A stretch of 64,000 nt of DNA from an uncultured delta proteobacterium (GCA_963808625.1 CAWEHK010000021.1:32001-96000); one strand, 5' to 3'. Positions 4,568 through 33,900 are shown, counted from the stretch's first letter. The notes: generated by a model not told the origin, from the letters alone. Numbers and translations are program-made.

Positions 4568-4830
4568 TCGGCGGCATGACCCTCAAAGACCAGCTCAAGA
4601 AACTCATCGTGGAAGACCTGAACCTCGATCAGGTCCTGCCGGAAGAAATCGGTGACGACGAGCCGCTGTTTGGCGACCGGTACGGGCTGGACTCGATCGA
4701 CGCCGTCGAACTGGTCTTCCAGCTCAAGAAACATTTCGGGGTCGTTATCAAGAACCAGAGTGAGGGCCGCTCGATTCTTCAAAGCGTGAACACCATTTGC
4801 GCATTCATTGAAAAAAGGCAGGGGGCATGA
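4564..4830 (+). CDS. Acyl carrier protein 1
   Basis: GLDSIDAVEL phosphopantetheine motif. The ATG overlaps the upstream stop (ATGA); alternative start at 4576. Confidence 0.9.
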   Translation: MIGGMTLKDQLKKLIVEDLNLDQVLPEEIGDDEPLFGDRYGLDSIDAVELVFQLKKHFGVVIKNQSEGRSILQSVNTICAFIEKRQGA

Positions 4831-8235: not shown

Positions 8236-9536
8236 TCACTCGTGGGATATATGCTTCAGAAAACGCTTCAGCATCGCCGCATAGGCCTGGTAGAAAAGCT
8301 TGGGCTCCATGCGCGTGGGGCAGACGGCATTGGTAAAGGTATAATAGTCCAGGTCGTGGATGGTGATTTTGTGTCTCATTTCCCGGTACAACGGGGTCCC
8401 GGGCAAGGGCGTCAGAATCGACGGCAGCGGCAGGTCGATGGCATGCGACGCCACAAAGCGCTCCAAAGCTTCGAAATCCGCCTCGGTGTATTCCGGAGTC
8501 ACGATGAAATCAGCAATGACCCGGATGCCCAGGTCCTCGAGTATGCCCAAGGCCTCGAGGTTGAGGGCAACCGAGCTTCGCTTCTGCAACCGCTCCAGCC
8601 CGGCATCAGTGATCTCCTCAAAGCCGATGACGGCCGCCGTCAGCCCGGCCTGTTTCCACAACCGGAGCAAGTCAGGATGCCGGCTCACCGTCTCCGCCCG
8701 CACATCAGCGATGAGTCGCTTTTTTCAACCCTGACTCAAGAATACACTGGCCCAGTTGGAGGGCACTCTCCGGGATCACCGAACGTGTTCGCATCCACCA
8801 GGCGAATGATCGGGACCTCCTCCAGCAGCTTCATGTCACGCAGGACCGCTGCCGGCCGGTGGGTGAGGTAGCGCCCGCCGGTCAGACTCGGGATGGAACA
8901 GAAAATACATCGGTGCGTACAGCCATAGGCCGTGGCGACGAAACCAACCTTCCCGCCCAGCCCACTTATCACATAATGGTCTCTGTGTGCAGCGACCAGG
9001 TCGTAGCGGGGAGGACGGTCATCAACGAGATCCTCGTGGGAATAGGCCCGCCGGACGTAATTCAGGCTCCCGCCCGGATTGGTTTTCGCGACGCCCGCGA
9101 TCCCGGAGCTGACCGTCCGGTTGGCGATGGCGTCGACCAGTTCCCTGAAACTGAGCTTGCCCAGGCCCACGACAATGTAATCGACGGCAGCATGGTTGAA
9201 AAACATGGGATCGCACGAGGCGTGATGGCCCCCCACCACGACCAGGGCATCGCGGTTGCGCTTGACCTCTGCTGCCAATCGCAACACGGTGTTGGCTTCA
9301 CAGACCACGCCGGTGAAACCGACCAGGTCGGGTTCAAAGTCGTCGAGGGTCTCTTCCAGTATATTCGGAGTCGCTTTCAAGTCGGCTATGGCGACGTCAT
9401 GCCCGTCCAAATTCCCGGCGATGACTTCCAGTGCCATGGGCTCGCCTCTGAAAAGCATCTTGATCGTATCGATCCCGTATTCTTCTTCGGGGATGCTTCT
9501 CCCGCAGTTGGGCGGGTTCACGAGGAGAATCTTCAT
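8236..9536 (-). CDS. Cobalamin-binding radical SAM protein (two apparent indels near 8720-8775)
   Basis: MKILLVNPP start, B12-binding segment VVVGGHHAS, CTHRCIFC (CX3CX2C), and C-terminal ILTPLPGTPLY. Confidence 0.85.
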
Positions 9537-9613
9537 ACCTTTACCATGTACTCGCTTATTATTCCTGCGGCAGCTGCAATGATGCTCGTTAAGGTCCAAA
9601 TGTTTATTTTTCC

Positions 9614-12494: not shown

Positions 12495-13392
12495 CTAAGG
12501 CTGTGGATGCCCGCGGTTCGGGTCGTGATGAATTTCATCGTGGTACCCTGCTGCAGCGATCATCACCGGCCGCCTGATCAAATCCGCGAGCGGAAGGATC
12601 TCCAAGCCTTTCTCCGGGATTCCCCTTAGCACCAGGTCGACCTCAGCGACCCAGCGGGGCAGCAGAGAAGGGTGGGGCAGGTTGTCGTGCAAGAGCAAAA
12701 TGTCATTGGCGCGCACGCGTCTTAAGATATTTCGTGCCAGATTGGTTACCCGTCGATTCCCGGCATCCCAGGCCCGGCAGCTGAAATTGACGACGAACAT
12801 GCCTTCCTTGTCGCATGACCCGGCGCAATTGCGGGGAGGTGATGGCCATGGGCGGCCGGTAGGCCAGGGCGACGATGCCGAGGTCCTTCAAGGCACGCTG
12901 GGTGGCCTCAATTTCGTGCTCCATCGTTTGGGTACTTCGAAAGGCGCCCAGCATGTCGTGGTGAAAAGAATGATTGGCCAGGCTATGCCCTTGCGCGAGG
13001 ATTTCTCTGACCAGTTGAGGATACTTGACGACCCGGTGACCGATTACAAAGAACGTCGCAGTAGCCCGATGTTTTTTCAGCAGCCGCAGCAGTTCCGGTG
13101 TGGTCAGCGGATCGGGGCCGTCGTCGAAGGTGAGGGCGACGGCCTTTCGGTCGCATGTTCCCCGGCTGACCACCGGCAGGAAAAAGCTGGAAGACGGGAT
13201 GAACGGGGCCGTCATGCACAACGTCAGAAATACCCCGAGAGGGACCACCGCCAGGCGCAGGTCCACCCATGCCAGAAGTACTGCGGCCAGGAAGACGACG
13301 CATCCCGTGCGTCCCATCGGCGACTGCGGCAGGTACTTCCGGAGAGTGTTTCTGATGGCACCCGACATGTTTTCTTCGAAAACAGGCATCAC
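12495..13392 (-). CDS. Polysaccharide deacetylase (NodB-type) with N-terminal TM helices (frameshift near 12810)
   Basis: ALTFDDGP, ANHSFHH and YRPP motifs. ILLLHD continues in ORF 12495-12800. Confidence 0.85.
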
Positions 13393-16300
13393 GCTTTCCT
13401 GGCAACCACCCAGACGAGTTCTTCATCGCACCCGGACGCGAGGGACTGTTCCACCTGAAAGCCCGCCTGCATGACCATGCTTTCCAATTGATGCACGGGC
13501 CGGTAATAGGCCGGAATCCGAGACAACTGCAGCAGCAGGTTGTGGTACCACCACGCCCAGGGCAAGCGCCGCTTCGGCAGCAGCGAGGCCCGGATAAGCA
13601 GCCTCCCGCCATCGCGGGTGCGTTCCCGCAAGCGTTCGAGCGTTTCCCTGAAATCCTCGTCCGTGAGGAAATGAACCATGTCGATCATCGTGGACAAATC
13701 GACCTGATCGCTGACCTCGGGGATCTCCGGAGCCCGGCCCTGGACAATAAGACCTCGGTCGCCCACTGCCATGGCCGCGATCCTGGCCCGCTCCGGCGAT
13801 GGCTCAACCCCGTGCAGGCGCGCCCCCGTGAACCGTTCGAGAAACCAGCTGGCGGGGACGCCGTAGCCCGTGCCAATGTCTCGAATCATCTTGAGGTCGC
13901 CATCGCCTCGAAACATCTGCTCCATTTCGGGGAACATCGGGTCCTGGCGCATCTTGAACCGTGCAAAGAGCCTTGGATAGGCCTCCAGGTAGCGGTACCG
14001 GTTCAATACCCGCTCCTGGATGGTGCTTCCGGTGACCACCCGTTCTTGCCGGAGCTTTTGAATGCGAGTGAGCACGGGCGGCAGAATCAAGAACGTCCCG
14101 ATCATCGAGTAAGCGATACCCAGAAACGCGGTTGCGCCGGTGCTCTGGAGCACGGAGTGGTCGGCCCCCCACATGGCCCCGAACCCGAGCAAGGTGGTTA
14201 CCGCGGAAAGAAAGACAGCCATGCGAATCTGGCTGAAGGACGGATGATCCAGGGTGGCGTAGCGCTGAAAGGACCGCACGTAGAAGATGGAGTAGTCGAT
14301 CCCGAGCCCAAAGACGATGATCGAGAGCATCAACCCGGGGATGTCGAGCGGCCGCCCCATGATGTTCAAGGTACCCAGGGTGCCGATCATCGCAAAGATC
14401 GAGGGCAACATGCACGCCAACGTGAGTGGCCAATCCAGCAGAAAAACGGCGACGAGGACGAAAGAGCAGATGACATTGATCAGAAAGAATTTGAGAGCGG
14501 TGCTGAACAGAAGGTCCCCGATGCTTTTGGAAAAGAATTGGGGATCGAACACCTTGACGGAGGACCTGTAGGCTTCGTAAAACTGCCTGGCGTCGTAACT
14601 CGGCCCCGTGGTCACAGTAGATACGAGGACCCATTGTGACCCATCCGCATTCCTGGTAATTCCCAGGAAGCCGGGGAACTGATCGAGGAGTCGAACATTC
14701 TCGGCGGGTGGAGAGGTTTCGCTCACCAGGTGGTAAAAGGCGGCGAAGGCATCATCGGCGAATCCCATCGAAGCGGACGAGGTCTCCGATGGTGCGCTTC
14801 AAGGTGCCGATTCGTTCAGGACTCCAGAACTCTCTCCAGGCATCAAAATTCTGCTGCCGGAGCGTCGCTCCCGGGACGATCATGGAGGGCGTAAAGCCTG
14901 AAGATAAGACCCCCGAGCGCAGATCCGAACGGATCTTTTCCGTAAGTTCATCGCCCTGGTGCTGGAGTTCCTCGAGCGATTGCGCCTCCGCCAGCAGGTA
15001 AACCTTGTCGAACAGGCCGCCCCACACCTCGGTGAGCAGCTTTTCCGCCGCAATGGTTTCGGCCCCGACGGTATTCATGGCCTGCAAGCTCACATTGAAA
15101 ACCGGCCTGGCAAAAAAAACCATAACGGCGGCAAAGATGGCCGCACCCCACAACCCTGTCCGACCGGTGCCGCCGAACGCATCCGCGACCTTTTGCAGGT
15201 GAAGCGACCGCTGGCCGCCGGGGGGCAATACCGGAAAGATCCTCTGGAAAACCAGGTGCACGATGAGAAAGCAGAACCCCAGACCCATCATCGTGAACTG
15301 CCCCAACTGAACGAAGACCGGAAACTCACTGAAACACAGCACCCCAAATGCCGCAACGGTGGTCAGCACCGCCAGCAGGCTCATGTCCCAGACCTCATGG
15401 GACGCCTCTTTTCCGAACGTATTGTAGGGCCGGTCCAGGAAGAGGAGGTAGGCGATGCCCTGATCGACGGTGAAGGATATGATCGCACCCCCAAAACCAA
15501 GAACCAGGATCGAGATGGACTGGTGGAAAAGCGAAAAGACGAAATAGGCGAGCATGGTTCCGGCCATCGCCGGCAGCAGGGAAAAAAGACCGATCACCGG
15601 CCGGCAGAACGAGAAAACGAGGAGCACCGCAATGCCGACGGTGGACAGCGTCACCGCAAAGCCGATGTCTTTCTTGATGATCCGCTGATTGTCCAGGGCG
15701 GCCCGATAGGCCCCGGTCGAGGTCAGAGTGACCTGCTGGCCCCCATGGCCATAGGTGTGGTTGACCTCGTCCGCAATCCGGTTCATCCGCTCCATGATCA
15801 AACCGGCAAATTCGGTCGCCGTGCTCGAGGCAATCGGGCTGGCAATGACCAGCAGGTGCCGGCTGTCGGCCGACAGAAGCTGTCCCCGAGAGACGCGGGC
15901 ACCGGTGGTTGGAATCAGGTGCGACATTCGTCTCAGAATCAGGCTGCTCAGATTCAGAGGGTCTGCGGCAATCATGGCCTGCTGGCCGATGCTCTCCAGC
16001 CCCAGTAAACCGGTATGAATCTGTTCCAACCGGCCCTGCACTGCCCCCGGCTCCAACAGCGGCTGCACCTGGTCCCGCAACTCCTCGGCCGAAAAGAGAA
16101 CCGGCAGGTTTGCCGACACGTAGGCGAGCATATCCGGCATGAGCGCCTGCGCGTCTTCCATGCCGACACTCTTGAACAACCCGCTCTCCTTCAGCCGGGT
16201 TTCGACCAACTTGCCGCAGGCGATCAGGGCATCCAGGTCAGCGTGCTTCAGGGAGACGTCGACCACGACCTGGTTTTGCATGGGGTGATGCAACAGCAGG

Positions 16301-16464
16301 TAGGTGGCATCAGCAATGATGGGGTCCGTCTTGGGAAGCGCGCCGATGATATCCGTGTCGATCTCGAGCCGATGCAGGCCCCAGGCGAACAGACCGACCG
16401 TGACCAGGAGGGTGAGCACCAGGAAGCGCCAGTTTAAGGGCAACGATTTCAGCACTGGAAGCAA
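13389..16464 (-). CDS. MMPL/RND-family lipid exporter with a C-terminal SAM methyltransferase domain (frameshift near 14765)
   Basis: Two TM bundles (ISFTVDQGI; GLGIDYSIF) and C-terminal DIGTGYG SAM motif I. ORFs 14752-16464 and 13389-14768 abut. Confidence 0.8.
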
Positions 16465-16471
16465 CCTTCCG

Positions 16472-17206
16472 TCAATGGCCGGCGACCAGCATCAGCAAGA
16501 CCATGATTAGAAAAACGTGGACCCCTATGACCAGCCACCTGTTGCGGTGATAAAATTCGTCCATCTTCTGGATTCTTAAGAGCCCTCCCCAGAACCTTCG
16601 CCATCGGTCCACCTTCCAGAGGCGCACGTTGTCCGTGCGCGCGTTGCTCTGAAAGGCAAATGACGGGTAGGCAGCGAAATAGGCTTCGGCCCGGCCACGC
16701 AATACCACATCAAAAGGCACCTGCCGCCACGGGAGGGCGAGCAAAGTTTCGGCAAAACGACGTTGCACCACGTAGGCGTGAGCAAGGCTGCGATAACGCA
16801 CCTTCAGCACGGAGGCGTTTGCGGTTTTCCGGCTGCTCGATGTCAGGCAGCCGAAAAAGAAGACTTTCCAGTCATCGTACGTGGAAAGGAAACGGACGCA
16901 ATCCGACAGTACGCGGGCGCTGAATCGGTCAAAAACGATATCGTCTTCAAAAATGAGCATGGTCCGGGCGCCCGCCTGAATCCCTCTGCGGAAGCATTCC
17001 AGGTGAGACTCGTAGATTCCCCGCTCGATGTCAACGGGATGTTTCTTCACGATGACAAATTCGACCCGGTCCGCCAGGCCGACGGCGCGAAACTGCCTTT
17101 CTGCCTCCTGCCGACGGTCTTCGCGCTCGTCCAGCGAGATGCAGTAGGTCTTGTCGAAAAAGGCCCAGAGGGCGGAAGGTGATGAAGCTTCGGTCGTTTG
17201 TCTCAA
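16472..17206 (-). CDS. Glycosyltransferase family 25-like protein
   Basis: YCISLDEREDRR, GIYESH, LIFEDD and AHAYVV motifs with a C-terminal TM helix. Confidence 0.7.
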   Translation of the reverse strand: MRQTTEASSPSALWAFFDKTYCISLDEREDRRQEAERQFRAVGLADRVEFVIVKKHPVDIERGIYESHLECFRRGIQAGARTMLIFEDDIVFDRFSARVLSDCVRFLSTYDDWKVFFFGCLTSSSRKTANASVLKVRYRSLAHAYVVQRRFAETLLALPWRQVPFDVVLRGRAEAYFAAYPSFAFQSNARTDNVRLWKVDRWRRFWGGLLRIQKMDEFYHRNRWLVIGVHVFLIMVLLMLVAGH

Positions 17207-17426: not shown

Positions 17427-17786
17427 TTGAACGTGATCTCAAGAATCGCCAACAGAATCGCGAACACCCCTTACGCGCGAAAGGCCGTCGAGGAAAAGGC
17501 CGACCTGAGCGCTTTCAAGCAAAAGCCGACGGCCCGAATCCTCCTGGGGGTGTTCCTGATCGGCTTCAGCTACGTCATCGGGTGGCCGGCCATCAGCGCT
17601 TTGACCGGCCTGGCCATCTACCTTAAAGAGCCTTTAGTGGCGGTCATCGGTGCGCCGTTGGCCTACGGTCTTTCACATCTGGTTTTCATCGCGGGGATGT
17701 ATCTGTCCGGAGCCAAATATTCAGCCATTTTTCTGCGCTGGGCGACACGGGTTGCCGTTGAAAAACTGCTGACAAAACAGACGTGA
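17427..17786 (+). CDS. Small hypothetical membrane protein
   Basis: 119-aa ORF with 2-3 hydrophobic segments. Confidence 0.65.
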   Translation: MNVISRIANRIANTPYARKAVEEKADLSAFKQKPTARILLGVFLIGFSYVIGWPAISALTGLAIYLKEPLVAVIGAPLAYGLSHLVFIAGMYLSGAKYSAIFLRWATRVAVEKLLTKQT

Positions 17787-17866: not shown

Positions 17867-18865
17867 CTACCAGGGTATAAACCGGTAAAGCTTGGCAAAC
17901 ATTTCGTAGACTTCGATCCAGTTCTGTAAGTCCCTGGCCGATCCCATATGGGCGCGCTTGTTCACCATCACCCAGCTCATGTGGGCCGCACCGTCCTTGC
18001 AGGTGCTGCAGTCCCGGGTTTCCGAAGTGCAGCAGCGGTGCATGGTGTGGAGGTCCGACGCCCAGCGGATGAACTCGATCAGCCGCTTGGGGGCAGGGTT
18101 GCGGCGGTCGAGGGGCTGGGTGACGGAGGGACACTCGTTCCAGCCGAAGCTCCGGCCCTGCATGGTCCCGGTGGTAATGATTTCGTGGTAATATTTCGAG
18201 GAGATGACGGTGTCCGGATACCGGTCCAGCATCCCATCCATTTCAACGCGAATCGCTTCGAGCTGCGGCGGCGTCCATGAAAACCCGTTGACGCCTTCAT
18301 CGTTGGAAAGCAGTTGCATGTGAACCTTCAGGCCCACGTCCCTGATCTTGCGTACGATCCTCTCCGTCTTTCCGATCTGTCGCGGGGTAATGGTGTAGAG
18401 ATAGTAGACATGGGGGTCGCCCGCGTAATTCCGGCTCGAAATGCTGAAGGTGTCCTTGCCGCGCAAAATCGTTTCGTCCTGCTCGTCACCCCACAGGGAG
18501 ATCCCCAGCATCATGTCCGGAAACCGGTCCCGGGGGATCTTGATCAGGCCGTTGGTGGCGCAGAAGGTGGACAGGCGCTTGTAGAAGGCCTCGACCCGGT
18601 CCAGGCAAAGGGTGGGTTCTCCGCCGATCAATATGGCCAAGTTCACCCCGCGCTGCTTTTCCCGGTCGACGAACGCCTCCCATTTGCGAATATCCATTTC
18701 CTCGGGGGCGGCCTTGTCTTCGTCCGAGGAGAAGAAGAAACAGCCCTTGCAGCGCAGGTTGCACCGGTTGGTGACATCGTAGATGGAGCTTCGAATGTTG
18801 AGCTTCGAGATCCTTTTGTAGCGCTCATGCCATTCGGGGTTCAGCAACGAACTGACGGTCTGCAT
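17867..18865 (-). CDS. Radical SAM protein B (paralog of the adjacent gene)
   Basis: YDVTNRCNLRCKGCFF, GGEP, and C-terminal C..CC..CxxC. Strong SD AAGGAG. Confidence 0.9.
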   Translation of the reverse strand: MQTVSSLLNPEWHERYKRISKLNIRSSIYDVTNRCNLRCKGCFFFSSDEDKAAPEEMDIRKWEAFVDREKQRGVNLAILIGGEPTLCLDRVEAFYKRLSTFCATNGLIKIPRDRFPDMMLGISLWGDEQDETILRGKDTFSISSRNYAGDPHVYYLYTITPRQIGKTERIVRKIRDVGLKVHMQLLSNDEGVNGFSWTPPQLEAIRVEMDGMLDRYPDTVISSKYYHEIITTGTMQGRSFGWNECPSVTQPLDRRNPAPKRLIEFIRWASDLHTMHRCCTSETRDCSTCKDGAAHMSWVMVNKRAHMGSARDLQNWIEVYEMFAKLYRFIPW

Positions 18866-18912
18866 CCAAACACTCCTTAGAAATACTCCAGGTACGCCCC
18901 AGCCGGCACCTG

Positions 18913-20010
18913 TCAGAAAAGCCCGGCCCCGGGCGGAGCGATCGGGGAATCCGAAAGGTTGGGTCCTTTTTCATACCCCATGACCCAGACGGCAAGGTAA
19001 GTGTCCACATAGTCGAGCCACGCCTTGAAGGTTTCCGGATCGGCGGCGTGGCGGAACATCCGGGCCGTGACGACGGCACTCCCCGAGGCATAATGCCGGC
19101 AGTCCCGGCAATCGGTGTCCGGCACGCAGCAGGCCGCACCCCGATCCCAGGACAGGTCCGCCCGATACTGCCGGAACGACCGCCCGAGACCGATGTCGGT
19201 CGACGGGTTCATCCGCGGGTAGGAGCAGCCGAACAGGTCGTGCAACCCCAGGGTGTGCGTGTGGGCGACGGTGCTGTAGGGGGAGAAAAGGACGCTGCGC
19301 GGATATTTCCCCAAAAGGTCAATCATGGCCGTTCGACATCGCCTGAGCGAAGCGGCCGTGTGGCGCAGGCTGCCCTCGTATCCCACCGGCGCCGAGAACA
19401 TGTTGAAGGTCAACCGGCACCCTGCGGCGGCCAGGACCCGGACGACCGGCTCGGCCTGGTCGATGTTTTCCCGCGTGAAGGTGTAGACAAAAACGGCCCG
19501 GGGGTCGCCCCGGTAGTTTTCGATCTGGCGTTCGAGCATGTTCCTGGCCTTGCGGATAGCCAGGCTGGTCTCATCCGATCCCCACACGGAAATGTGAATT
19601 TTGTACTGGATGGTTTCCGGCATGGAGATCAGGCCGTTGGTGGCGATGGCCCCCAGGGGCATTTCCTGACAGCAGACCTCGCAGAGTTCGGGAACCAGCG
19701 ACGGTTCGGCGCCCGCCAACACCACGTAGGTGATTCCCCGCGCCTTCTCCGACTGCATCAGCCGGCGCCAGGCCTCGGGGTCCCGGTTTTCCCGCACAAA
19801 CTGCTTATCGCCTTCATAAAAGTAGCACCCGTCGCACCGGATGTTGCAGCGGTTGGTCATATCATAGGTGGATTCGCGCAGGAAAAACCATTTCTTGACT
19901 TTCTGCCAGCGCTCCGAAATCCGAGGATCAGCCAGGATGTCTGAAAATTTAATCCCGTTTTCGGGCACCGGGCTGCCCTCCCCACCGGATGTTGCGGTCG
20001 TGATCGCCAT
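18913..20010 (-). CDS. Radical SAM protein A (in frame with the upstream ACP as written)
   Basis: YDMTNRCNIRCDGCYF, GAEP, and C-terminal C..CC..CxxC. It has its own GGAG-N6-ATG at 20010. Confidence 0.88.
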   Translation of the reverse strand: MAITTATSGGEGSPVPENGIKFSDILADPRISERWQKVKKWFFLRESTYDMTNRCNIRCDGCYFYEGDKQFVRENRDPEAWRRLMQSEKARGITYVVLAGAEPSLVPELCEVCCQEMPLGAIATNGLISMPETIQYKIHISVWGSDETSLAIRKARNMLERQIENYRGDPRAVFVYTFTRENIDQAEPVVRVLAAAGCRLTFNMFSAPVGYEGSLRHTAASLRRCRTAMIDLLGKYPRSVLFSPYSTVAHTHTLGLHDLFGCSYPRMNPSTDIGLGRSFRQYRADLSWDRGAACCVPDTDCRDCRHYASGSAVVTARMFRHAADPETFKAWLDYVDTYLAVWVMGYEKGPNLSDSPIAPPGAGLF

Positions 20011-20316
20011 GGGTCTCTCCAGGGTCAGGCCAGCGGCCTTCTCAGCGGCCTTTTCCTGCAACTTCTTTTCGATATGCTCCGAAATCAGCTGAATCGTGGT
20101 CAACTTCGGATAGTCATCCTCATCGATTCGAATGCCGTATTGGTCCCGAATCACCAGCGCCACCGTGGCCAGATCCATACTGTCGATACCCACTTCATCC
20201 ACCAGGTCGATCCCCGGGTCAAAGGTCTCAGGCGTCACATCCGTCAGTTTCAACTCGTCAATGAGAATTTCGGCAACACGGAGAATGATTTTGTCGACGC
20301 TCTTGTTTCCGGTCAT
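20011..20316 (-). CDS. Acyl carrier protein 2 (possibly fused to radical SAM A)
   Basis: GIDSMDL phosphopantetheine motif. No in-frame stop before the radical SAM domain. Confidence 0.85.
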
Positions 20317-20340
20317 TATGTCCCACTCCTTGCTCTCAAA

Positions 20341-20709
20341 TTAAACCCCGCCAGGATTGACGGGATCGTTTCGTTTTTCCAGCGTCATCGTGCCGGTGCA
20401 CGCGATGTCGTCTCCGGCCGTGATGCGAAAGGCATAAAGACCGGGCCGGTTCTTCTGCGGCAGAACGGTAATCTTCAGGCAATCCCCCGGCCGGATCATC
20501 TTCTTGAATTTGATCCGGCTGAAACCAACAACCCTGAACCGTTCGTCCAGCGCCTTGCACGCGGCTTCATAGACCATCCCGAGTTGAGCGATCCCCGGAA
20601 GAATCGGATCTCCGGGAAAATGACCGGGAAACCAGGAGGATTCCGGAGGCAGGTGCACTTCGGTATACCACTCGCCCGTCTCGATGCGTTTCAACCGTGT
20701 TGAGGTCAT
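20341..20709 (-). CDS. FabZ/ApeI-like hotdog dehydratase
   Basis: WFPGHFPGDPILPGIAQL and IKFKKMIRPGD motifs. Confidence 0.85.
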   Translation of the reverse strand: MTSTRLKRIETGEWYTEVHLPPESSWFPGHFPGDPILPGIAQLGMVYEAACKALDERFRVVGFSRIKFKKMIRPGDCLKITVLPQKNRPGLYAFRITAGDDIACTGTMTLEKRNDPVNPGGV

Positions 20710-20753
20710 GCCACATGCAATTCACGCCTTGCGGTGTTGGAAAACCGCTTCGA

Positions 20754-21020
20754 TTATCGTATCAGTATGGGGGAGTTCTTGGAGATATAAGCAGCCAGGG
20801 TCGATAAGCTCGCAAAGACCTTTTCGCCGAGTTCGCGATTATCGATCCGCAGCCCATAATCCTTTTCGATCATGATGACCATCTCGAGCACATCGATGGA
20901 ATCCAGTCCGAGACTGCCGCCTACGAGGGGTCCGTCGACATCCACATGGATTGATGGAAGATTGGCCAGGTCCAGGATACTGACTATTTTCACCTTGAGA
21001 TCTTCGATCAGCTGTTCCAT
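20754..21020 (-). CDS. Acyl carrier protein 3
   Basis: MEQLIEDLK..GLDSIDVLEM. Confidence 0.88.
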   Translation of the reverse strand: MEQLIEDLKVKIVSILDLANLPSIHVDVDGPLVGGSLGLDSIDVLEMVIMIEKDYGLRIDNRELGEKVFASLSTLAAYISKNSPILIR

Positions 21021-21364
21021 TCGATTTTCCGCAATATAAAGTGATGACCGTGAAGCAGTTTCAATGATCGTATCGAGATATCCTGTGGGCTTTGGCACGT
21101 CTGCAGGCTTCGGAGGCGCACACCCATGATTTCTTTACAATCCCGGGAAACTATTGTATCGTTTTCGCCTCCACCATTCAAAGGCCTTGCGCGGCATCGC
21201 CGGAGGCTTTTTCATGATTCAAACGCAAAAGCGATTCTTTGGAAGGTGATTGAAATTCGATTGATTTCATCGGGATGCAAACCCATGTCACCTGTTGTCA
21301 AAGTGAGAACTTATATTGAATTTCAAGTTTCTTTTCAATCCTTTTTATTTGCATGCAGGGCCAC

Positions 21365-21802
21365 ATGAACCCGACGGATGTGAAACCCGACAGCATCCTC
21401 CCCCACCGGGAGCCCATGCTGCTGATCGAAGAGATCCTTGTGCTGGACGACAGCTGTGCCGTAACGCGGTCCGTGGCCACTGACAAATGGCCCCTCTGCG
21501 ACGGTCGGAATGTAAGCGCTATCGTTTTGATCGAGCTCGTGGCCCAAACCTCCGGGATTCACAATGGATTCATCAGGGAGAAGAGGGAAGGAGCCGCCGC
21601 GGGCACGATGGGGTGGATTGTCGGGATCAGGCAGGCGCGGTTTTTGGTGGACCCCCTGCCGGTGGGCACCGAACTCGTCACCAGGACCGAAAACCAGATG
21701 GAATTCGAAGGGTTTCGCGACATCTTCGGCAGGGTCGAAATTGCCGGAGAGATGGTGGCTGAAATCGCTCTGCAGCTGCTGCGAGCCACCCCCACGGCCT
21801 GA
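21365..21802 (+). CDS. ApeP-like hotdog dehydratase
   Basis: ILPHREPMLLI and LIELVAQT motifs. Confidence 0.8.
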   Translation: MNPTDVKPDSILPHREPMLLIEEILVLDDSCAVTRSVATDKWPLCDGRNVSAIVLIELVAQTSGIHNGFIREKREGAAAGTMGWIVGIRQARFLVDPLPVGTELVTRTENQMEFEGFRDIFGRVEIAGEMVAEIALQLLRATPTA

Positions 21803-22903: not shown

Positions 22904-23972
22904 TCACCTTGGCTTGGCGAGCAAATACTGAGAAGGCCACGGCAAGTCGACGTTGAGGGCTTTGGCGGCATGGAGCGGCCAGTAAGGCTGACGCAAGAAC
23001 TCTCGCGCCATGAGGATGGCATCCGCCTGGCCGGTAGCGATGATCTGCTCCGCCTGCACCGGATGGGTAATAAACCCGACCGCCCCCGTAGCGATTTCGG
23101 CCTGCTGCCTGACCGCCGCCGCAAAGGGGACCTGGAATCCCGGACCGGCAGGGATTTTCGCGTGAGGCAGCAAAGCCCCGCTGGAACAATCGATGAGATC
23201 CACGCCGAGGGCTTTCAGACGGCGGCACAAGGCGATGGATTGGGTCAGGTCCCACCCGCCTTCGACCCAGTCAGTACACGAGATGCGGACAAAAAGCGGC
23301 AGGTGAGCCGGCCATGTTTCGTCGGAGCGATTCCGCGACTCGCAGCGGAAGGCGCAGGCGGTTTTCGAGGGGGCCGCCGTATTCATCGGTGCGATGGTTC
23401 GATAAGGGTGAGAGGAATTCGTGCAACAGGTAGCCATGGGCCATGTGGATCTCGAGGACTTCGAAACCGGCCTCGAGGCTGCGGCGGGCCGCTGCGACAA
23501 ACTGGGAAAGAACCTCTTCGATGTCCGCCTGAGTCACTTCCCGCGGCCTCGGGGACGACTCATCGAAGGGAATGGGGCTTGGCGCCAGCGGCTGCCATCC
23601 GCCTTCTTCTGCGGTCAGCGGTTTGCCGCCGCGCCATGGGGCATCCGTGGACGCTTTTCGCCCCGCATGAGCCAGCTGGATGCCGGGCACTGCTCCCTGG
23701 CTCTTCAGAAAACTGGTAATGCGTTTGAAGGCCAGCGCATGGTCATCCGACCACATCCCGCTGTCGTTGGGGGAGATCCGGCCTTCAGGTGAGACCGCCG
23801 TGGCTTCCACCATGACCAGGGCGGCCCCCCCGACGGCGCGACTGCCAAGATGCACCAGATGCCAGTCGGTGGGCTTCCCGTCGTCGCTCGAATACTGACA
23901 CATGGGCGAGACGAAAATGCGATTCCTGAACTCAATTTCCCTGATCTTCAATGGTGAGAACAGCTTGCTCAT
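22904..23972 (-). CDS. NADH:flavin oxidoreductase, old yellow enzyme (NamA/YqjM-like), frameshifted near 23330
   Basis: NRIFVSPMCQYS, IQLAHAGRKAS, EIHMAHGYLLHEFLSP and AREFLRQPYW. Confidence 0.9.
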
Positions 23973-24181: not shown

Positions 24182-27100
24182 TCAACTCTTTGGAGCGTCG
24201 TCAAAGTGTCGAGTAAAGTCATTTTGAGTCATATGCCGTATCCACTCCTCCTCATCATTAGCTGCCCGCTCGCACAACAAGGGCAGCGTCTCCGGATCGT
24301 CACGATACCATTTAGCCAAGGCCGAAAGGGCCTGTCTTCGAACCCATCCATCCTCATCCTGAACTACCCGCGCGCGCAGTAAGGGCAGCGTCTCTGGAGC
24401 GTCATGATACCATTTAGCCAAGGCCAAAAGGGCCTGTGCCCGAGCCCCTCCAGCCTCATCCTGAACCACCCGCGCGCGCAGCAACCGCAGCGTCTCTGGA
24501 TCGTCACGATACCATTCAGCCAAGGCCAAAAGGGCCTGTTCCCGAGCCCCTCCAGCCTCATCCTGAACCACCCGCGCGCGCAGCAACCGCAGCATCTCTG
24601 GATCGTCACGATACCATTCAGCCAAGGCCGAAAGGGCCTGTTCGCGAGCCAATCCATCCTCATCCTGAACGGCCCGCGCGCGCAACAAGAGCAGCGTCTC
24701 TGGATCGTCACGATACCATTCAGCCAAGGCCGAAAGGGCCTGTATTCGAACCCATACATCCTCATCCTGAACTACCCGCGCGCGCAGCAAGGGCAGCGTC
24801 TCTGGATCGTCACGATACCATTCAGCCAAGGCCAAAAGGGCCTGCGTTCGAGCCCCTCCAGCCTCATCCTGAACCACCCGCGCGCGCAACAAGGGCAGCG
24901 TCTCTGGATCGTCACGATACCGCACAGCCAGGGCCGAAAGGGCCTGTGCCCGAGTCCCTCCAGCCTCATCCTGAACCACCCGCGCCCGCAGCAGGGGCAG
25001 CGTTTCTGGATCGTCACGATACCATTCAGCCAAGGCCGAAAGGACCATCCCCCGTGCCTCTCCATCCTCATCTTTAACCACTCGCTCGTGCAACAATGCC
25101 AGGGTCTGCGGATCGTGCCGATACCACTGGGCCAGGGCCGAAAGGGCCATCCCCCGTGCCCATCCATACTCATCTTGGACCGTCAGGTTGCGTAACATTG
25201 GCAGGATCTGCGGCTCGGCATGCCAAGCCTCAGCCGCGTAAGCTATCGCAAATCCACGTGCGACACCGTCGGTTGCCTTAAAGATGCTGTGTCGCAGGAG
25301 TTCCAAGTTCTCAGGATGGCCACGCCGCAGCTCGGAAAACGCGTGGACAGCAAAGCATTGGGACCCAGTAGTATCGCGGCGTGCGAGGAGCTCAAGCAAG
25401 GACTGCCGAAGTTCCGGCAAATCTGATCCTACTGCGCCTAAGAAGACCCCGCACGAATGCTGCTGAAGGTATCCGGTGAAGGAATCCAGAAAAGGCACGA
25501 TATCATTGCTCAACCAGGCACTGAGGAGTTCGTTGCCCGGCCAGTTGCGGCCTACGGATCTGGCATTGGGTGCAATCACTGTGTCGAGAAAATCTGCAAG
25601 CCGCTCTTCTTTTTCTTTGAGCATTCGAGAAAATAGCCGGCAACAGGTTTGCAGCAACTGTGCCGCGGCACCCCTAATTGCCGAAGGATTCCTCACCTCG
25701 CCAAGACACTGTACAGCCAGGGCAATATTCCACGGTGGAAGAGAACCAAACTCTTCGGGCCATGGCTGATAGACTTCTCTTATCAGATAGGTAATGATTT
25801 CCCCCACCCATTTCTGGTCAATCATCCCACAGATCAGTCGCAGCACCTCGTGCCAACTCTGATCCGCCCAATGCCTGCCGAAAACGTCCTCCTTCAGTTG
25901 CTCCAGCGACAGCTCCCGGGTCTTTTCAAACTTATGGACAAAAGCCGCGGCGCAAAAGAATTCCAGGAACGCCCGATGCACAAAGCCGTAGAGATTTGCG
26001 CCATACAGCAAAAGGATAAAATTGCGCTGGCGAAACTGGTCCATCATCCCCTTCGCAATTTTTGCGGCTTCGGCAGCCGAATACTGGTAACGTTCTCTCA
26101 AGTAGCCTTCGAACTCGGCCTGTAACTGCTCGTGATGAATATAATTGCCCGCCAGACCTCCATCGCCTCCCTGCATCTTGAAGGCGAGCCGGCGCAGCAG
26201 TTCCTTTTTGTCCTCTTCACCAATCACGTCCACATCGACACGGTCGTCCCGCAGATGTTTGTTCACATCCCAGTGCTGGATCAATACACCGGCAGCGTAG
26301 TCATAGAGTTTCCAGCGTTCCTGCGGCAATTCCTGATGCTTGCCGATAATCGCCATGATGGTAAGCAGCATGGGATTGGCCGCCAGTTGGCGGATGGATG
26401 AGGATCCTCGGAAAGAGCTCAGGATGCGCTCACGGCGCTCCCGAGCTTCGTCGGGACGATCTGTCATCGCCAACCGATACCAGCGGTCCACGAACGGCTC
26501 CACCTGGTTTTGGTCCAGGTCCTGGAGCGTGAAATGCGCAAACCCCGCATCGCTGAGGATCTTTCTCCGGTAACCGATAACGCGACTGGTGACGATGACG
26601 CGTGCTCTCGCGTAATCGGATGCGAAACCGACAATCTGCCGCGTGATGCGCTCGCGGTCTTCAGCATTAAAAATCTCATCCAGGCCGTCAAAGACCACCA
26701 CCGCGCGCCCGTCATTCTTCAGATGATGGTGGAGCGCACTCTGGGTGAGATGCCAGCCCTCGGTCTTGCCAAGGTATTCCAGGAATTCCAGGAAAGTGTG
26801 GCAGGTCCCGTCCTGGCACAACCCGGCATAACTGCGCAGTTCGATCAACAGGGGAAGATGATCCTCGAACGCGCAGCGGATTTTATCATCGCCCTCGGGG
26901 TCCATAAGGGAGAGCAGGATATAGCGGGCCAGCGTTGATTTGCCCGAACCCGGATCGCCAAGGATGATGACCTGGCGATGGCGCGCGTCGGTGAGCACGT
27001 CCAGCACCGGGTGCAAGACCTTTTCATAGTAAGTCTCCCGCACCCGGCGAAGGTCCTCGAGCGTCGTGCCTTCAGGCAAGTCCTCGGGGTGGATTTCCCT

Positions 27101-27790
27101 TTCGCGTTCGAGCCTACCCCAGACTTCTTTCGGCAATTCGATCGGGGGCGGACTTTCGCGGACGTTCTGCTCCACGAAAACGGAGCGAAGTTGCATTTGC
27201 AGGTATTCTTCCTTTTGCGGCGGAGTGAGCCCTTCCAGGGCAAGTGTTTGATAGCGCTTTTTCAGGGCGGTGAAATATGCGCTGAGGTCGAATTCGGTGG
27301 AAAACGCGCCGGGAGGGGTATAGCCGGTCTCCGTGGCCCACTTGTGAATCGCGGGCGCAACGATCGAACCGATGTCTTCCGCCGACATGAATGGTCCAGC
27401 CCCGTGCTTTTCGCTCATTTCTTCACGGAGCTTCCTGATCGGCTTCCTATCATCGTCAATGAAATCGGGTGGCCACGACGCTTTGCCGTCCAGGAGAAAA
27501 ATCAGGCATTTCTTTTCACTTTTCAATGCCTGGCGGTACTCCATCTCGGTAATGGAAAGCCGGTCTGGATTGTCTGCTGTCGGTATCCAGCCGTAGCGCC
27601 AGGCAAAAATGCCAAGATACAAATCACACCGGGCGACATCCGCCAGGCATTTGTCAACGGGGCGTTGATCTTCGGCGATGTAATACTCCATCGCCACATC
27701 TTCATGTCCCATCCTGCGGACCACCAACTCAACCTGCCTGCGGCATTCTTTCAGGTCTTCGAAGGTTGAGGAGATATAAATCCTGGCCAT
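24182..27790 (-). CDS. DUF4062 + NACHT NTPase + HEAT-repeat protein (bacterial NLR-like STAND)
   Basis: MARIYISSTFEDL..YGWIP..SITEMEY (DUF4062), Walker A GDPGSGKST, Walker B VFDGLDE, NPMLL, FVHRAFLEFF, then 34-aa C-terminal repeats. Confidence 0.9.
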   Translation of the reverse strand: MARIYISSTFEDLKECRRQVELVVRRMGHEDVAMEYYIAEDQRPVDKCLADVARCDLYLGIFAWRYGWIPTADNPDRLSITEMEYRQALKSEKKCLIFLLDGKASWPPDFIDDDRKPIRKLREEMSEKHGAGPFMSAEDIGSIVAPAIHKWATETGYTPPGAFSTEFDLSAYFTALKKRYQTLALEGLTPPQKEEYLQMQLRSVFVEQNVRESPPPIELPKEVWGRLEREREIHPEDLPEGTTLEDLRRVRETYYEKVLHPVLDVLTDARHRQVIILGDPGSGKSTLARYILLSLMDPEGDDKIRCAFEDHLPLLIELRSYAGLCQDGTCHTFLEFLEYLGKTEGWHLTQSALHHHLKNDGRAVVVFDGLDEIFNAEDRERITRQIVGFASDYARARVIVTSRVIGYRRKILSDAGFAHFTLQDLDQNQVEPFVDRWYRLAMTDRPDEARERRERILSSFRGSSSIRQLAANPMLLTIMAIIGKHQELPQERWKLYDYAAGVLIQHWDVNKHLRDDRVDVDVIGEEDKKELLRRLAFKMQGGDGGLAGNYIHHEQLQAEFEGYLRERYQYSAAEAAKIAKGMMDQFRQRNFILLLYGANLYGFVHRAFLEFFCAAAFVHKFEKTRELSLEQLKEDVFGRHWADQSWHEVLRLICGMIDQKWVGEIITYLIREVYQPWPEEFGSLPPWNIALAVQCLGEVRNPSAIRGAAAQLLQTCCRLFSRMLKEKEERLADFLDTVIAPNARSVGRNWPGNELLSAWLSNDIVPFLDSFTGYLQQHSCGVFLGAVGSDLPELRQSLLELLARRDTTGSQCFAVHAFSELRRGHPENLELLRHSIFKATDGVARGFAIAYAAEAWHAEPQILPMLRNLTVQDEYGWARGMALSALAQWYRHDPQTLALLHERVVKDEDGEARGMVLSALAEWYRDDPETLPLLRARVVQDEAGGTRAQALSALAVRYRDDPETLPLLRARVVQDEAGGARTQALLALAEWYRDDPETLPLLRARVVQDEDVWVRIQALSALAEWYRDDPETLLLLRARAVQDEDGLAREQALSALAEWYRDDPEMLRLLRARVVQDEAGGAREQALLALAEWYRDDPETLRLLRARVVQDEAGGARAQALLALAKWYHDAPETLPLLRARVVQDEDGWVRRQALSALAKWYRDDPETLPLLCERAANDEEEWIRHMTQNDFTRHFDDAPKS
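24227..25144 (-). repeat. Nine tandem 102-bp coding repeats (34-aa HEAT-like units), plus a degenerate tenth
   Basis: The unit LSALAEWYRDDPETLPLLRARVVQDExxxxRxQA recurs at exact 102-nt spacing. Confidence 0.92.
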
Positions 27791-28020
27791 GCTATTCACC
27801 CTTCCTGAGCTCAAAAAGCAGCACAATCTTCGGATCAGACGCCCATTCTGCCGCGCCTCATGCGCAAAGCAGGCAGAACCCTTGACTGGCCAGTAGAATG
27901 ACAACTTATGAGGCACTGTACAACAATTTTGTTCGCCGTCTACTGCTCGCGTTTCTGTTTGTCAAATGCTTTGTATCAGGACAATCGCGCGCAAAAGCAC
28001 AGGCAAGGACAGGCTCGCAC

Positions 28021-30946: not shown

Positions 30947-33900
30947 TTACTCGGCCATCCCCGAGCGCATCGCGTCGAGCTTTTGGGCGATGAACTGGGC
31001 GATGAGCGATTCGTATTCTTTGCCCAGATAGGTGCGATAGGAAAAGAGCTCATATTTCAAGCTGTTCCAGTAAGCTACCAGCTCCTCCGCGGAATGGAAT
31101 GCACTGATCCGCTGCTCGATTGACTCGAGGTAGCGATCACGCATTCGAAAACGATGAAATTCGAACATTTCTTTGAGCAGAAAACGCTGTTCCTCGGAAA
31201 AGCTCAACTCTGCCTGCTGCCTTTCGAGCTCCTGTTCAAGTTCACCAAATTCCGAAAAACTGCGGACCGAAGCCAGCCGTTCCTGCAGGACGGCCAGGGC
31301 CCGATCACTGATTTTCTTCTGCTGCTCCTGCAACGCCCCCTGCAAGGCATCCTCGAAGTCCTTTGCGTCAAAGGGAAGCTTTTGGCGGAGTTCCTCGACC
31401 AGCTCATGGTAGCGCCGATCCAACGCTTCCCGGTCCCAGATCGTTGCCAAGGAACCCACCATGAGATCGATCGGCACCGTATAACGGTAGTCAACCCGAA
31501 TAACCCGGTCCGTGGTATTTACCTCGAAATGGATGCCGCCCGGTTCCTGATCGGGTTTGCCGGGTGACCGCCCTGCGGCACCGTTGGACTCCGGGAACGG
31601 AGAATGGCGAAGATCCCTTTGCAGCGCCGCGTGGACCCTTTCGATCTTCCGGTTTAAAGGCCCAAAGAGGATGAGGCAGTTCTTCGCTTCCGGCCCGAAG
31701 TGCTGCTCGTACACCCGCATGGAGAGCAGGAGAAGCTTAATACTCGCTTCAAGGTCCAGAAACGCGGGCAGGGTGTGGTAATCATGAACACGCACGCCCC
31801 CGCCAAGGTGATCGAGACCGCAGAGGAGCCCGCTTTGCGCGTTGGAAGGCAGCGCCGAAATGACCTCGACCGTTTTCACCGCTTCGTGGAGCTGGGCTTC
31901 AAACGCTGCCATGCCGACGCTCTTCAGCTTCTTCTTGTAGTAGATAAAGGTGACGGGCATCTTCTTGAGAAACATTTGCAGGTCCTGAAAGTCGACCCAG
32001 GTGATTCCCAGGAGTTTCAGCAGGCGCTCAAGAGCAGCAGCCTGCCGTCCCTGCCGCAGAAAATCATGCTGGTTTTCATCGCGGCTCGTATCCCGAGCAT
32101 GATTCACCGCTGCCCCCTCTCCCATCACGCACCATTCGGGGAAGCAAAACTCGGGCATCACCGCCTTGCCTTTTTCCACCAGCGCCTCTTCCAGCCATGC
32201 CTGCCAGTTGCTTTTGGTCCGGATGAGATGATGACCGGTGGCGCGGTAATTCAGGTAGCCATCCAGCAGGTCCGCAACCAGCAGGCCTTCCCGAGCGGCG
32301 GCGGCATTCAAGACGGCCTGGAGCACAAAGGCATCCAGGATGTGCTCATCCTGGCCGGCCGTCACCCATTCCAGGGCCGGGATGGGTTCCTCTCCCCGAA
32401 GGACCCGCCCAAACAAGCCATGATAGCGCACCAGGAGAATCGCGAGGCCTCCCACCTGAGGGTCAATATGGTGCTGCTCCAAAATGTTGGTCTGTTCGAG
32501 GAACATGGCTCCCCGTTCCGCGCTGGTCCTCAGCCTATCAGATTCAGGGAGACGCGCGGCGTATTGATCAACTTCACCGATCTCCTGGAACAGCAGCGCC
32601 GCCATCAGCGCCTGCAGAAGCATGGGTCGCTGCTGCATCGATTCAACGAGATGTTCAAGAATGTCCAGTTGGAAGTGGGTTACGCCGGTGCCCTCCTCGG
32701 CGAGCGGCCCGAACTCCTCTTTCGCCAGTTGATAGAAGATGTTGCGATCCTGAAAGGCGTTGCGATCCTTCCTCACTAATGCCTGAAACTTGAGAAGACC
32801 TCGCATGACACCGTCGGCAAGGGATTCCTGGTGCGGAGCACGGCGTTCGTCCCCGAGATTTCCCAGAGCATGCAGCTCGGGCAGGACAAACCGAAAGATC
32901 TCCGGACAGTGCATGGCGAGACTGTTCACGGTATCGTAAATTTCTTCCGGGACCAAAATGTGGTTTTGCATGATCCTCTTCAGCCGGCACTCGATCTCGT
33001 CAATGCTTGATCCCGCCGTGTCCGGCCGGCCGGCCATGCCGTGAGGCCCTGCCGATGGTTCCTCCTCGCGGCCGGCATGCCGCTGAAGGTAGCGGTTGAA
33101 GCTTTCCAGTTCCGAGAAGAGCCTTTCCAATTCCTTCAGGTGCCTCAGGGAAATGGTGCTCAGTTTTTGCCGTTCGAAGTGCCCCAGCAGCCCTTCAAGT
33201 TGCTGGATATCCTCCTCCACATCCACAAAGGAGAGATCGACCGCTCGGGTCACGGCATTGTTGGTAAGGCGTAACCCCGTGCCCGGGACAAATGCCGGGA
33301 GGCCCTCGGCCAGCGTCCTTCTGATGCGATCAAGATGCGTTGGGGCAAGCTTCTCCTGAGGAATTTGCAGAAGGGTTGCCTTGATCTTGGCAATACGCGC
33401 CTCGAGACGATCTTGAGGCATCCCTGCCAGCATGGGATTGAAATTAACAAGGCGCCGCTCCGAGGCAATGACGGCGATCCAAAGCAGCAGGAACCCGGCT
33501 TTTGCTCCAAGCGCCGGAAACAGCTTGCCGGTCCCATGAAATTCAGTCTCGAGAAACTGCCGGAAAAAATTTGCTTGCCCAAACAGGTCACCGCGCAAGA
33601 ACCGGCGGTTGAAATCGGCGGCCCAACCCGAAAGCTCAAGGGCTTCTTCGAGCTGCTGGAGCTTCTCCGGTTCATAGTCGCAAGCCACCTCTCTCGCGAA
33701 CTGGTCCTTGCGCATGAGGTCCTGCCAGTCGTCGAGAAATTCAAAGAGATTGAAAAACTTCATCATCTCCCTGATGGCCATGTTCTGCACACCACCGAGC
33801 GCGCTGATCTGAAGATCGTGCAGGTTCTCCCAACCCAGCCAGGGATCAGTCGCCACCGCCACGGCGGCATTGTAGAGGTGAAACAGCTCCCGAGAGTGTT

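Follow-up and report, generated by a model that had tools for sequence, protein, structure and literature searches.

A paralogous radical SAM enzyme pair with a dedicated acyl carrier protein: a conserved module of a type II lipid cluster and a candidate for carrier-directed radical chemistry

Introduction

What do two paralogous radical S-adenosylmethionine (SAM) enzymes do when they are encoded directly behind an acyl carrier protein (ACP) of their own? The question is raised by positions 17867–21020 (minus strand) of a 64,000-nucleotide stretch of DNA from an uncultured delta proteobacterium (GCA_963808625.1 CAWEHK010000021.1:32001-96000; the whole stretch is hereafter the window), which encode a first carrier protein (ACP1), a dehydratase, a second carrier protein (ACP2), and the radical SAM proteins rSAM1 and rSAM2. 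It bears on how strict anaerobes modify unactivated fatty-acyl carbons. Unusual radical reactions on fatty-acyl chains have long been suspected of clusters of this kind. Here, the rSAM1–rSAM2 pair is described as the most conserved element of its cluster in at least 80 species-level genomes and as a strong candidate for a new, carrier-protein-directed radical chemistry.

The pair is very probably an old candidate and not a new sighting, having already been flagged in print for Kuenenia and Desulfotalea. Extended type II fatty acid synthesis (FASII) clusters were described by Rattray et al. (2009; PMC2649909), in which the cluster of Kuenenia stuttgartiensis is syntenic with that of Desulfotalea psychrophila and the radical SAM pairs are Kuste3343/DP1855 and Kuste3342/DP1853. 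The Kuenenia genes were later listed in the order FabZ (3339), ACP (3340), FabG (3341), radical SAM (3342), and radical SAM (3343), in a cluster that also contains FabF paralogues, methylases, a deacetylase-like gene (3351), and a glycosyltransferase (3335) (Javidpour et al., 2016; PMC4790861). Clusters called "ladderane" by antiSMASH have since been reported in Desulfobacterota, Myxococcota, and other non-anammox phyla (Geller-McGrath et al., 2023; PMC9902471). The relevant radical SAM enzymes are still described as uncharacterized (Dietl et al., 2023, PMC10139942; a 2026 review, PMC13459092), and anammox bacteria as being without genetic systems (Dietl et al., 2023; PMC10139942). A literature search that covered sources other than subscription journals and bioRxiv supplements returned no characterization of this radical SAM pair. 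At least one strain from a culture collection, Desulfogranum japonicum DSM 18378, carries the module and would be easier to work with than anammox bacteria.

A Conserved Core of Carrier Proteins, Dehydratase, and Radical SAM Pair

The region 17867–21020 is the conserved core of a type II fatty acid synthase (FAS)/polyketide synthase (PKS)-like lipid cluster, with ACP1 followed by the dehydratase, ACP2, rSAM1, and rSAM2. In the window, the core consists of four open reading frames (ORFs) that run in the same direction on the minus strand with short gaps between them; these and other selected window ORFs were scanned against Pfam and NCBIfam profiles. ACP1 (20754–21020) has 88 amino acids when read from the ATG at 21020, within an open frame that extends to a GTG at 21098, and carries its phosphopantetheine serine in the motif LDSID; it matches the Pfam PP-binding model at 32.0 bits (cutoff 20.8) and the NCBIfam phosphopantetheine-binding model PRK09184 at 61.6 bits, which is under the cutoff of 70. 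The second gene (20341–20709) encodes an ApeI/FabZ-like hotdog 3-hydroxyacyl-ACP dehydratase of 122 amino acids with an HFPGDPILPG motif, matching Pfam FabA at 33.7 bits and ApeI-like at 32.7 bits (cutoff 28.5) and falling under the NCBIfam FabZ equivalog cutoffs. The third is an ORF of 467 amino acids (18913–20316), with PP-binding at residues 14–82 and Radical_SAM from residue 153. Its ACP2 domain (20032–20316, approximately residues 1–95) scores 32.8 bits against PP-binding (cutoff 20.8) and has its phosphopantetheine serine, S46, in the motif IDSMD, and its rSAM1 part (18913–20010) has 365 amino acids if read from M103. The fourth gene, rSAM2 (17867–18865), encodes 332 amino acids with a GGE motif. 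AAGGAG-type ribosome-binding sites precede the start codons of ACP2 and rSAM2, and a promoter/terminator scan gave three promoter-like sites against 1.8 expected, too weak a signal for defining a transcription unit. The first-pass annotation of this DNA had placed the module correctly and had counted five separate parts. All five domains are there, but ACP2 and rSAM1 form one ORF with no stop codon between them, a point that is taken up below.

Related loci were collected from species-representative genomes with a profile built from a 6-sequence alignment, and the best 80 of 368 relatives were examined, a sample outside which Kuenenia, Desulfotalea, Geobacter, and other distant carriers lie. 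Gene presence was scored by tblastn of the window proteins, and the denominators given here and below are the assessable loci. Sixty-eight of the 80 loci are Desulfobacterota-type, namely Desulfobacterales, Desulfobulbales (including D. japonicum DSM 18378, locus L044), and Syntrophus-/Smithella-type, whereas 11 come from metagenome-assembled genomes (MAGs) of Spirochaetota/Leptospirales and one from a Myxococcales MAG; all are 71–91% identical to rSAM2 of the window. The gene for rSAM1 lies directly upstream of that for rSAM2 in 73 of 74 loci, with a median gap of 38 nucleotides and with L020 as the exception. ACP2 is present in 66 of 67 loci, the ApeI-like dehydratase lies upstream of the pair in 63 of 67 (those with at least 2,300 nucleotides available upstream), and a ketosynthase (KS) starts within 900 nucleotides downstream of rSAM2 in 69 of 72. 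ACP1 has a tblastn match in 42 of the 80 loci and a counterpart of 88 amino acids in L001. Thus, the claim that the pair follows a dedicated ACP agrees with the wider sample, and the situation that had been named as one that would refute a carrier-linked role, homologues without ACP or KS neighbors, was looked for and is not what these loci contain.

The members of the core are not equally constrained. Median identity to the window across the loci is 81% for rSAM2, 71% for rSAM1, and 70% for ACP2, which makes these three proteins, proposed to work together, the most constrained of the cluster and rSAM2 the slowest-evolving. The corresponding values are 55% for ACP1, 46.5% for the polysaccharide deacetylase, 44% for the GT25 glycosyltransferase, 40–43% for the two parts of the MMPL exporter, and 41% for the dehydratase. 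Since the Spirochaetota loci have the same identity profile as those of Desulfobacterota (in L006, for instance, the dehydratase is 41% and rSAM2 83% identical), the identity of rSAM2 reflects constraint and not just recent transfer.

Two Paralogues in an Uncharacterized Branch of the Superfamily

rSAM1 and rSAM2 are true paralogues, their similarity being far beyond chance: BLASTP aligns rSAM2 with the 467-residue ORF over 329 positions at 28% identity (E 9e-39). The motifs that had been read from the DNA at first pass all recur in both translations, namely R-x-S-x-Y-D-x-T-N-R-C-N-x-R-C-x-G-C-x-F, ATNGLI, IS-x-WG, YT[FI]T, and a C...CC...C-x-x-C tail. The CxxxCxxC motif, which binds the SAM-cleaving [4Fe–4S] cluster, corresponds to C35, C39, and C42 in rSAM2 and to C157, C161, and C164 in rSAM1 (numbered along the 467-residue ORF), and each protein has five further cysteines toward its C terminus: C245, C278, C279, C286, and C289 in rSAM2, and C364, C396, C397, C403, and C406 in rSAM1. 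All nine conserved cysteines of each protein are kept in 99–100% of orthologues (79 rows for rSAM2; 73 rows for rSAM1, in which conservation is 100%), and those of the CxxxCxxC motif in 100%. Across 61 diverse family members, C35, C39, C42, C278, and C289 are invariant and C286 is kept in at least 90%. The five C-terminal cysteines probably hold one auxiliary Fe–S cluster in each protein.

Both proteins belong to the radical SAM superfamily (PF04055), with scores of 34.4 bits for rSAM2 and 30.4 bits for rSAM1 (cutoff 29.5); this generic model covers only their first ~65 residues. The earlier opinion that they fit no characterized subfamily is borne out by the more specific models. In NCBIfam, 33 and 31 families were matched by the two proteins at E ≤ 0.01 (the best 25 for each were considered), and every radical SAM match stays at or below 31.6 bits, against cutoffs of 180–720, and is confined to the N-terminal cluster-binding stretch. 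Neither protein matches PF13186 (SPASM), and Fer4_12 reaches 19.9 bits, under its cutoff of 22. Two specific assignments were rejected: a class B (cobalamin-dependent) radical SAM methylase, as neither protein matches PF02310, and a Tes/Mss-type lipid coupling enzyme, as the NF045702 scores are 31.0 and 26.0 bits (cutoff 450), with ~65 N-terminal residues aligned. Among PDB sequences, phmmer gave five matches (E 0.005–0.9), all confined to the N-terminal cluster motif and including GDGT-MAS (7tol; E 0.017 over residues 29–93), and the ESM Atlas returned the protein's own family only.

Predicted structures add a distant context. The AlphaFold2 models are confident, with a predicted local distance difference test (pLDDT) score of 94.2 and a predicted template modeling (pTM) score of 0.92 for rSAM2, and of 89.2 and 0.89 for rSAM1. 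The nearest PDB folds found by Foldseek are anSMEcpe, ChlB, SkfB, CteB, BlsE, SuiB, DesII, and viperins, at template modeling (TM) scores of only 0.46–0.55; the first seven of these are auxiliary-cluster enzymes for two-electron oxidations or cross-links. The pair probably falls in the broad auxiliary-cluster (SPASM/twitch-like) part of the superfamily, as one uncharacterized branch with distant similarity to SPASM/twitch enzymes.

Of 1,910 homologues of rSAM2, the best 120 all have 332 amino acids and are 83–93% identical; an exhaustive search of 1.84 billion representatives gave 618 clusters at E ≤ 0.001 and 37 at E ≤ 1e-30, with just one full-length cluster more than 50% identical to rSAM2 and the next full-length relatives at 37–38%. 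In a tree of 53 full-length members (nine incomplete or motif-less rows having been dropped), rSAM1-type and rSAM2-type proteins are sister clades (14 rows; SH-aLRT support 96) beside a third clade of 39 rows. Labels from cluster look-ups and from a profile of relatives at 25–38% identity are Blastocatellia, Pyrinomonadaceae, Polyangiaceae, Xanthobacteraceae, Streptomyces, Bacteroidales, and Deltaproteobacteria; no anammox or Desulfotalea name occurs among the protein-search labels.

More distant relatives are carried on plasmids. Near full-length homologues, 31–35% identical, occur in 16 plasmid records, and the regions of three were inspected. In Burkholderia (L081, 9246–11643), the radical SAM gene lies between a gene for a PaaI-like protein and a directly downstream PaaI thioesterase gene; a divergent operon nearby encodes ACPs, at a distance of 6–8 kb, together with an adenylation enzyme and a halogenase. 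In Alteromonas (L082, 9174–11529), it lies between a PaaI-like protein and a directly downstream MaoC dehydratase. In Methylomagnum, the order is ACP, TauD dioxygenase, radical SAM, and nonribosomal peptide synthetase (NRPS). ACP genes are thus nearby in two of the three regions, a hotdog gene is directly downstream in two, and a PaaI-like gene is ahead in two. The trio shared by Burkholderia and Alteromonas, a PaaI-like protein, a single radical SAM protein (33–35% identical), and a hotdog thioesterase or dehydratase, may be a separate uncharacterized system of the same family.

An Apparent Fusion of ACP2 and rSAM1

The joining of ACP2 to rSAM1 in the window is probably a one-base indel of the assembly, to judge from the extra base at the junction, the unfused relatives, and the other frame-split genes of the window. 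DNA alignment of the junction (20011–20037, minus strand) with loci L001, L002, L033, and L003 reveals one extra base relative to L001, the closest relative; it shifts the ancestral TGA (20027–20025) into another frame, so that the two reading frames become one. Both the GGAG ribosome-binding site and the M103 start codon ATG (at 20010) are preserved. A stop codon separates ACP2 from rSAM1 in all 71 assessable loci, with the other 9 of the 80 not assessable. The best 120 homologues of the 467-residue ORF have 341–384 amino acids and PF04055 alone, none being fused, and the closest rSAM1 homologue (90% identity) has 365 amino acids, exactly the length from M103.

At least four other window genes are split by frame changes. 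The essential alanyl-tRNA synthetase gene alaS (42603–45312, minus) is divided into a catalytic-core ORF of 642 amino acids and a tRNA_SAD/DHHA1 ORF of 250 amino acids in different frames, and the breakage of an essential gene points to indel errors in the assembly. The MMPL/RND–methyltransferase gene (13389–16464, minus) appears as two overlapping ORFs in different frames, whereas in the D. japonicum isolate genome the exporter is a single ORF of 1,014 amino acids (L044, 16047–19091). A gene for an old-yellow-enzyme-type NADH:flavin oxidoreductase (22904–23972, minus) is likewise present as two ORFs that overlap and differ in frame. A B12-binding radical SAM gene (8236–9599, minus) is split by a frame change into ORFs of 287 and 155 amino acids; the window protein is only 22–29% identical to the B12-binding radical SAM proteins encoded between ACP1/KS and dehydratase in related loci. 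If the fusion were real, it would be Rosetta-stone evidence for direct channeling from ACP to radical SAM enzyme; as things stand, the window is a cautionary case in which an apparent domain fusion is probably a one-base assembly error. The window is a further instance of the module, and a new handle on it only through this probably artefactual fusion.

Proposed Function and Alternatives

What might the pair do? We lean, if only slightly, toward an oxidative radical tailoring of an enoyl or polyenoyl chain bound to ACP2. The ApeI-like dehydratase would leave such a chain on ACP2, and rSAM1 and rSAM2 would each abstract a hydrogen from the tethered chain via a 5′-deoxyadenosyl radical. The auxiliary cluster would take the second electron, so that a two-electron oxidation would create a new C=C or C–C bond at two sites or in two steps; the ketosynthases would then extend the chain, and the product would be glycosylated and exported. 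The substrate, the auxiliary cluster, and the chemistry in this scheme are what we infer for the pair from its genes and their company, and any single chemistry, taken by itself, is unlikely at best. The most ambitious form of the proposal, in which the pair is a two-enzyme radical machine that makes either C–C bonds (ring closure) or non-conjugated double bonds in a polyenoyl chain on a private ACP, is doubtful. If it is true, the pair would represent that half of the "ladderane-type" pathway which is conserved and not specific to anammox bacteria. Apart from Jaw5, radical SAM chemistry would then have its first example on carrier-bound chains of the FASII type, and sulfate reducers, syntrophs, and some spirochaetes would be expected to export a glycolipid that has yet to be described.

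Several observations weigh against the proposed tailoring of a carrier-bound chain. When the Kuenenia genes were expressed in E. coli, neither radical SAM protein was detected and no new fatty acids appeared (Javidpour et al., 2016; PMC4790861). The unusual lipids of Desulfotalea were reported as acyclic polyunsaturated hydrocarbons (Rattray et al., 2009; PMC2649909), and reviewers call the link to the cluster unproven; acyclic polyunsaturated lipids would favor desaturation over ring closure if the genes are orthologous and responsible for those lipids. With TM scores of at most 0.55, the analogy with anSME-type oxidation is weak. The plasmid relatives (three of the 16 inspected) are single genes beside NRPS, TauD, or PaaI-like genes, which indicates that the family is not restricted to lipid pathways. 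In the window itself, the KS pair that follows rSAM2 in most related loci is missing from that place, and the exporter–methyltransferase and B12-binding radical SAM genes are among several cluster genes split by frame changes, so that this copy may be decayed or badly assembled. Finally, in L020 (1194–2846) ACP2 is followed directly by rSAM2 without rSAM1, which may be a natural deletion or a misassembly; accordingly, either the pair is not absolutely obligatory or the contig is misassembled.

The alternative that survives best is possible, though we consider it rather unlikely: instead of working at separate steps, rSAM1 and rSAM2 would be partners in an obligate heterodimer or complex with one joint reaction on the chain bound to ACP2, one subunit initiating the reaction and the other relaying electrons or holding the substrate. 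Near-invariant adjacency with a short gap, shared constraint (median identities of 81% and 71%, the dehydratase having 41%), and the sister-clade relationship within the family all fit such a partnership. However, CxxxCxxC is intact and every C-terminal cysteine is present in each of the two proteins, which gives neither of them the look of a degenerate partner; rSAM1 is absent from L020, and the distant relatives in the plasmid regions inspected are single genes. A complex prediction for rSAM1 and rSAM2, each with its own alignment, gave a score of 0.00 and speaks neither for nor against binding.

It is improbable that the enzymes act after release from the carrier, on a free or membrane lipid as Tes or GDGT-MAS do, with the ACP only building the precursor. 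Tes is among the top NCBIfam matches of both proteins, GDGT-MAS is among both the PDB sequence matches and the fold matches, and the cluster encodes an exporter and a glycosyltransferase; yet the Tes scores are far under the cutoff and confined to the N-terminal cluster motif, the TM scores to GDGT-MAS (7tol and 7tom) are 0.42–0.45, and the tightest conservation and linkage are with ACP2, not with the exporter genes. More improbable still is that the paralogues each insert one atom, of sulfur or of a different heteroatom, into the acyl chain on its carrier, with the C-terminal cluster as a sacrificial donor. LipS1 and LipS2, a paralogous radical SAM pair that makes the lipoyl group on a carrier-bound octanoyl chain (PMC9585515), provide a precedent, and the conserved extra cysteine-rich cluster site of rSAM1 and rSAM2 would suit such a role. 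Still, no lipoyl synthase, biotin synthase, or MiaB-type family occurs in Pfam or in the best 25 NCBIfam matches of either protein, the lipoyl synthase of Mycobacterium tuberculosis comes at rank 26 of the fold search (TM 0.40), and no sulfur-mobilizing genes were seen in the cluster. That the two proteins are maturases of peptides that are made by the ribosome and modified after translation (RiPPs), or glycyl-radical activases, merely located beside lipid genes is barely credible: the nearest solved folds are mostly RiPP maturases (SkfB, CteB, SuiB, and ChlB) and some automatic source names read "organic radical activating enzyme", but neither PF13186 nor any RiPP-maturase model reaches its cutoff, the neighbors are ACP, dehydratase, and KS in 63–69 of 67–72 loci, and neither a glycyl-radical enzyme nor a conserved gene for a short peptide turned up in the window, L001, or L044.

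The Wider Cluster and Other Features of the Window

Around the core, the window contains further genes of a lipid cluster. Divergent from ACP1, an ApeP-like hotdog dehydratase gene (21353–21802, plus; Pfam ApeP-like 30.0 bits, cutoff 27) likely encodes the partner of the ApeI-like enzyme; in 32 of the 80 loci, an ApeP-like gene is found upstream of ACP1 and on the other strand. On the other side of the pair follow, by Pfam assignment and all on the minus strand, a GT25 glycosyltransferase (16472–17206), the MMPL/RND exporter fused to a methyltransferase, in its two parts (14752–16464 and 13389–14768), and a polysaccharide deacetylase (12703–13392), an order that recurs in L028, L033, L039, L044, L053, and L072. 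Between rSAM2 and GT25, on the plus strand, lies a small membrane-like ORF of 119 amino acids (17427–17786) that matches no Pfam family; tblastn finds it in 20 of 80 loci at 39–73% identity, and it is on the opposite strand in the 16 in which it lies downstream of rSAM2. The KS and chain-length-factor (CLF)-like genes of the window lie at 16–1554 and 4827–7056 on the plus strand. Among them (1577–4567, plus) are genes for an FMN-reductase with a fused SCP2 lipid-binding domain and for a BtrH_N/DUF4872 protein, which has a BtrH-like acyl-carrier acyltransferase fold; BtrH-like genes also occur near the cluster in L022, L026, L057, and L070.

Loci L001 and L044 carry a fuller cluster, which includes LolA, a ketoreductase (KR), an ApeP-like dehydratase, KS–CLF, a B12-binding radical SAM protein, and a 4HBT thioesterase, together with a PKS-type dehydratase, a PlsC acyltransferase, GT25, the MMPL–methyltransferase exporter, a polysaccharide deacetylase, and PagL.

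Three other regions of the window were recorded. A protein of 1,244 amino acids (24182–27916, minus) is of the STAND type, with a DUF4062 (TIR-like) N terminus, a NACHT NTPase, and a long series of HEAT repeats that are nearly identical; it looks like a defense or signaling NTPase and is unrelated to the lipid cluster. An ORF of 1,578 amino acids (30947–35683, minus) has no Pfam match at E ≤ 1e-4. The genes dnaN, gyrB, and gyrA (50270–56794, plus) lie beside a dip in G+C content to 0.49 (50001–52000); the window is chromosomal and probably close to the replication origin.

Comparison With Known Systems

Two systems offer precedents for the proposed reaction. In LipS1/LipS2 of Thermococcus, as in the proposal made here, two paralogous radical SAM enzymes act together on one carrier-bound acyl chain (PMC9585515), but no sequence relationship to the window pair is detectable. 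In the Jaw5/C10P system, a HemN-like radical SAM cyclopropanase modifies the α,β-unsaturated, carrier-bound ketoacyl chain of an iterative PKS during elongation (PMC13459092) and is thus a precedent for radical SAM chemistry on a carrier-bound chain. It differs in being of the HemN-like class, which uses two SAM molecules, and in being a single enzyme and not a paralogous pair; no HemN-like family occurs among the Pfam matches or the best 25 NCBIfam matches of either radical SAM protein.

In structure, the closest counterparts are SPASM/twitch enzymes (anSMEcpe, SkfB, CteB, SuiB, BlsE, and DesII), with which the pair shares a partial TIM-barrel core and a C-terminal cysteine-rich extension ending in CxxC and which are its best structural matches (E 4e-10 to 1e-6). 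The likeness is limited: TM scores are 0.46–0.55 and identity is 14–20%, the Pfam SPASM model is not matched here, and the pair has a cysteine spacing of its own (C, ~32 residues, CC, 5–6 residues, CxxC). The settings differ as well, carrier-protein lipid synthesis in the case of the pair and peptides or sugars in the case of the SPASM/twitch enzymes.

At the level of the whole cluster, the architecture resembles that of an aryl polyene (APE) cluster, with radical SAM genes in addition. As in APE clusters, there are ApeI-like and ApeP-like dehydratases at Pfam cutoffs, a pair of small ACPs, ketosynthases of the KS/CLF type, an MMPL exporter, and a glycosyltransferase, to which relatives of the window cluster add LolA, a KR, a 4HBT thioesterase, and a PlsC acyltransferase; the gene set by which APE clusters are recognized (an ApeI/ApeP pair, KS/CLF, dedicated ACPs, and export or attachment genes) is therefore present. 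The starter in canonical APE clusters is an aryl acid that an adenylating enzyme (ApeH-type) activates, whereas no AMP-binding or adenylation domain was found among the selected ORFs scanned in the window, L001, and L044. We know of no radical SAM enzymes in canonical APE clusters, and here there are up to four such genes: the pair, the B12-binding radical SAM gene, and, in L044, a SPASM radical SAM gene.

The closest likeness is to the published clusters of Kuenenia and Desulfotalea, in which two neighboring radical SAM genes likewise come shortly behind those for a FabZ-like dehydratase and an ACP within an extended FASII-like cluster, accompanied by several FabF paralogues, a deacetylase-like gene, one or more SAM methyltransferases, a glycosyltransferase, and a membrane protein. 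Kuenenia differs in having FabG between the ACP and the radical SAM genes, as well as a phenylacetyl-CoA ligase and phytoene-desaturase-like genes, none of these being detected in the window. In Desulfotalea, the two radical SAM genes carry locus tags that are two apart. One of the related loci, L028, comes from a MAG of the Desulfocapsaceae, which we take to be the family of Desulfotalea. Because the gene content and order of the window, L001, L028, and L044 match the published gene lists of Kuenenia and Desulfotalea, a comparison made by gene content and order alone, the window pair very likely belongs to the same family as the Kuenenia/Desulfotalea pair.

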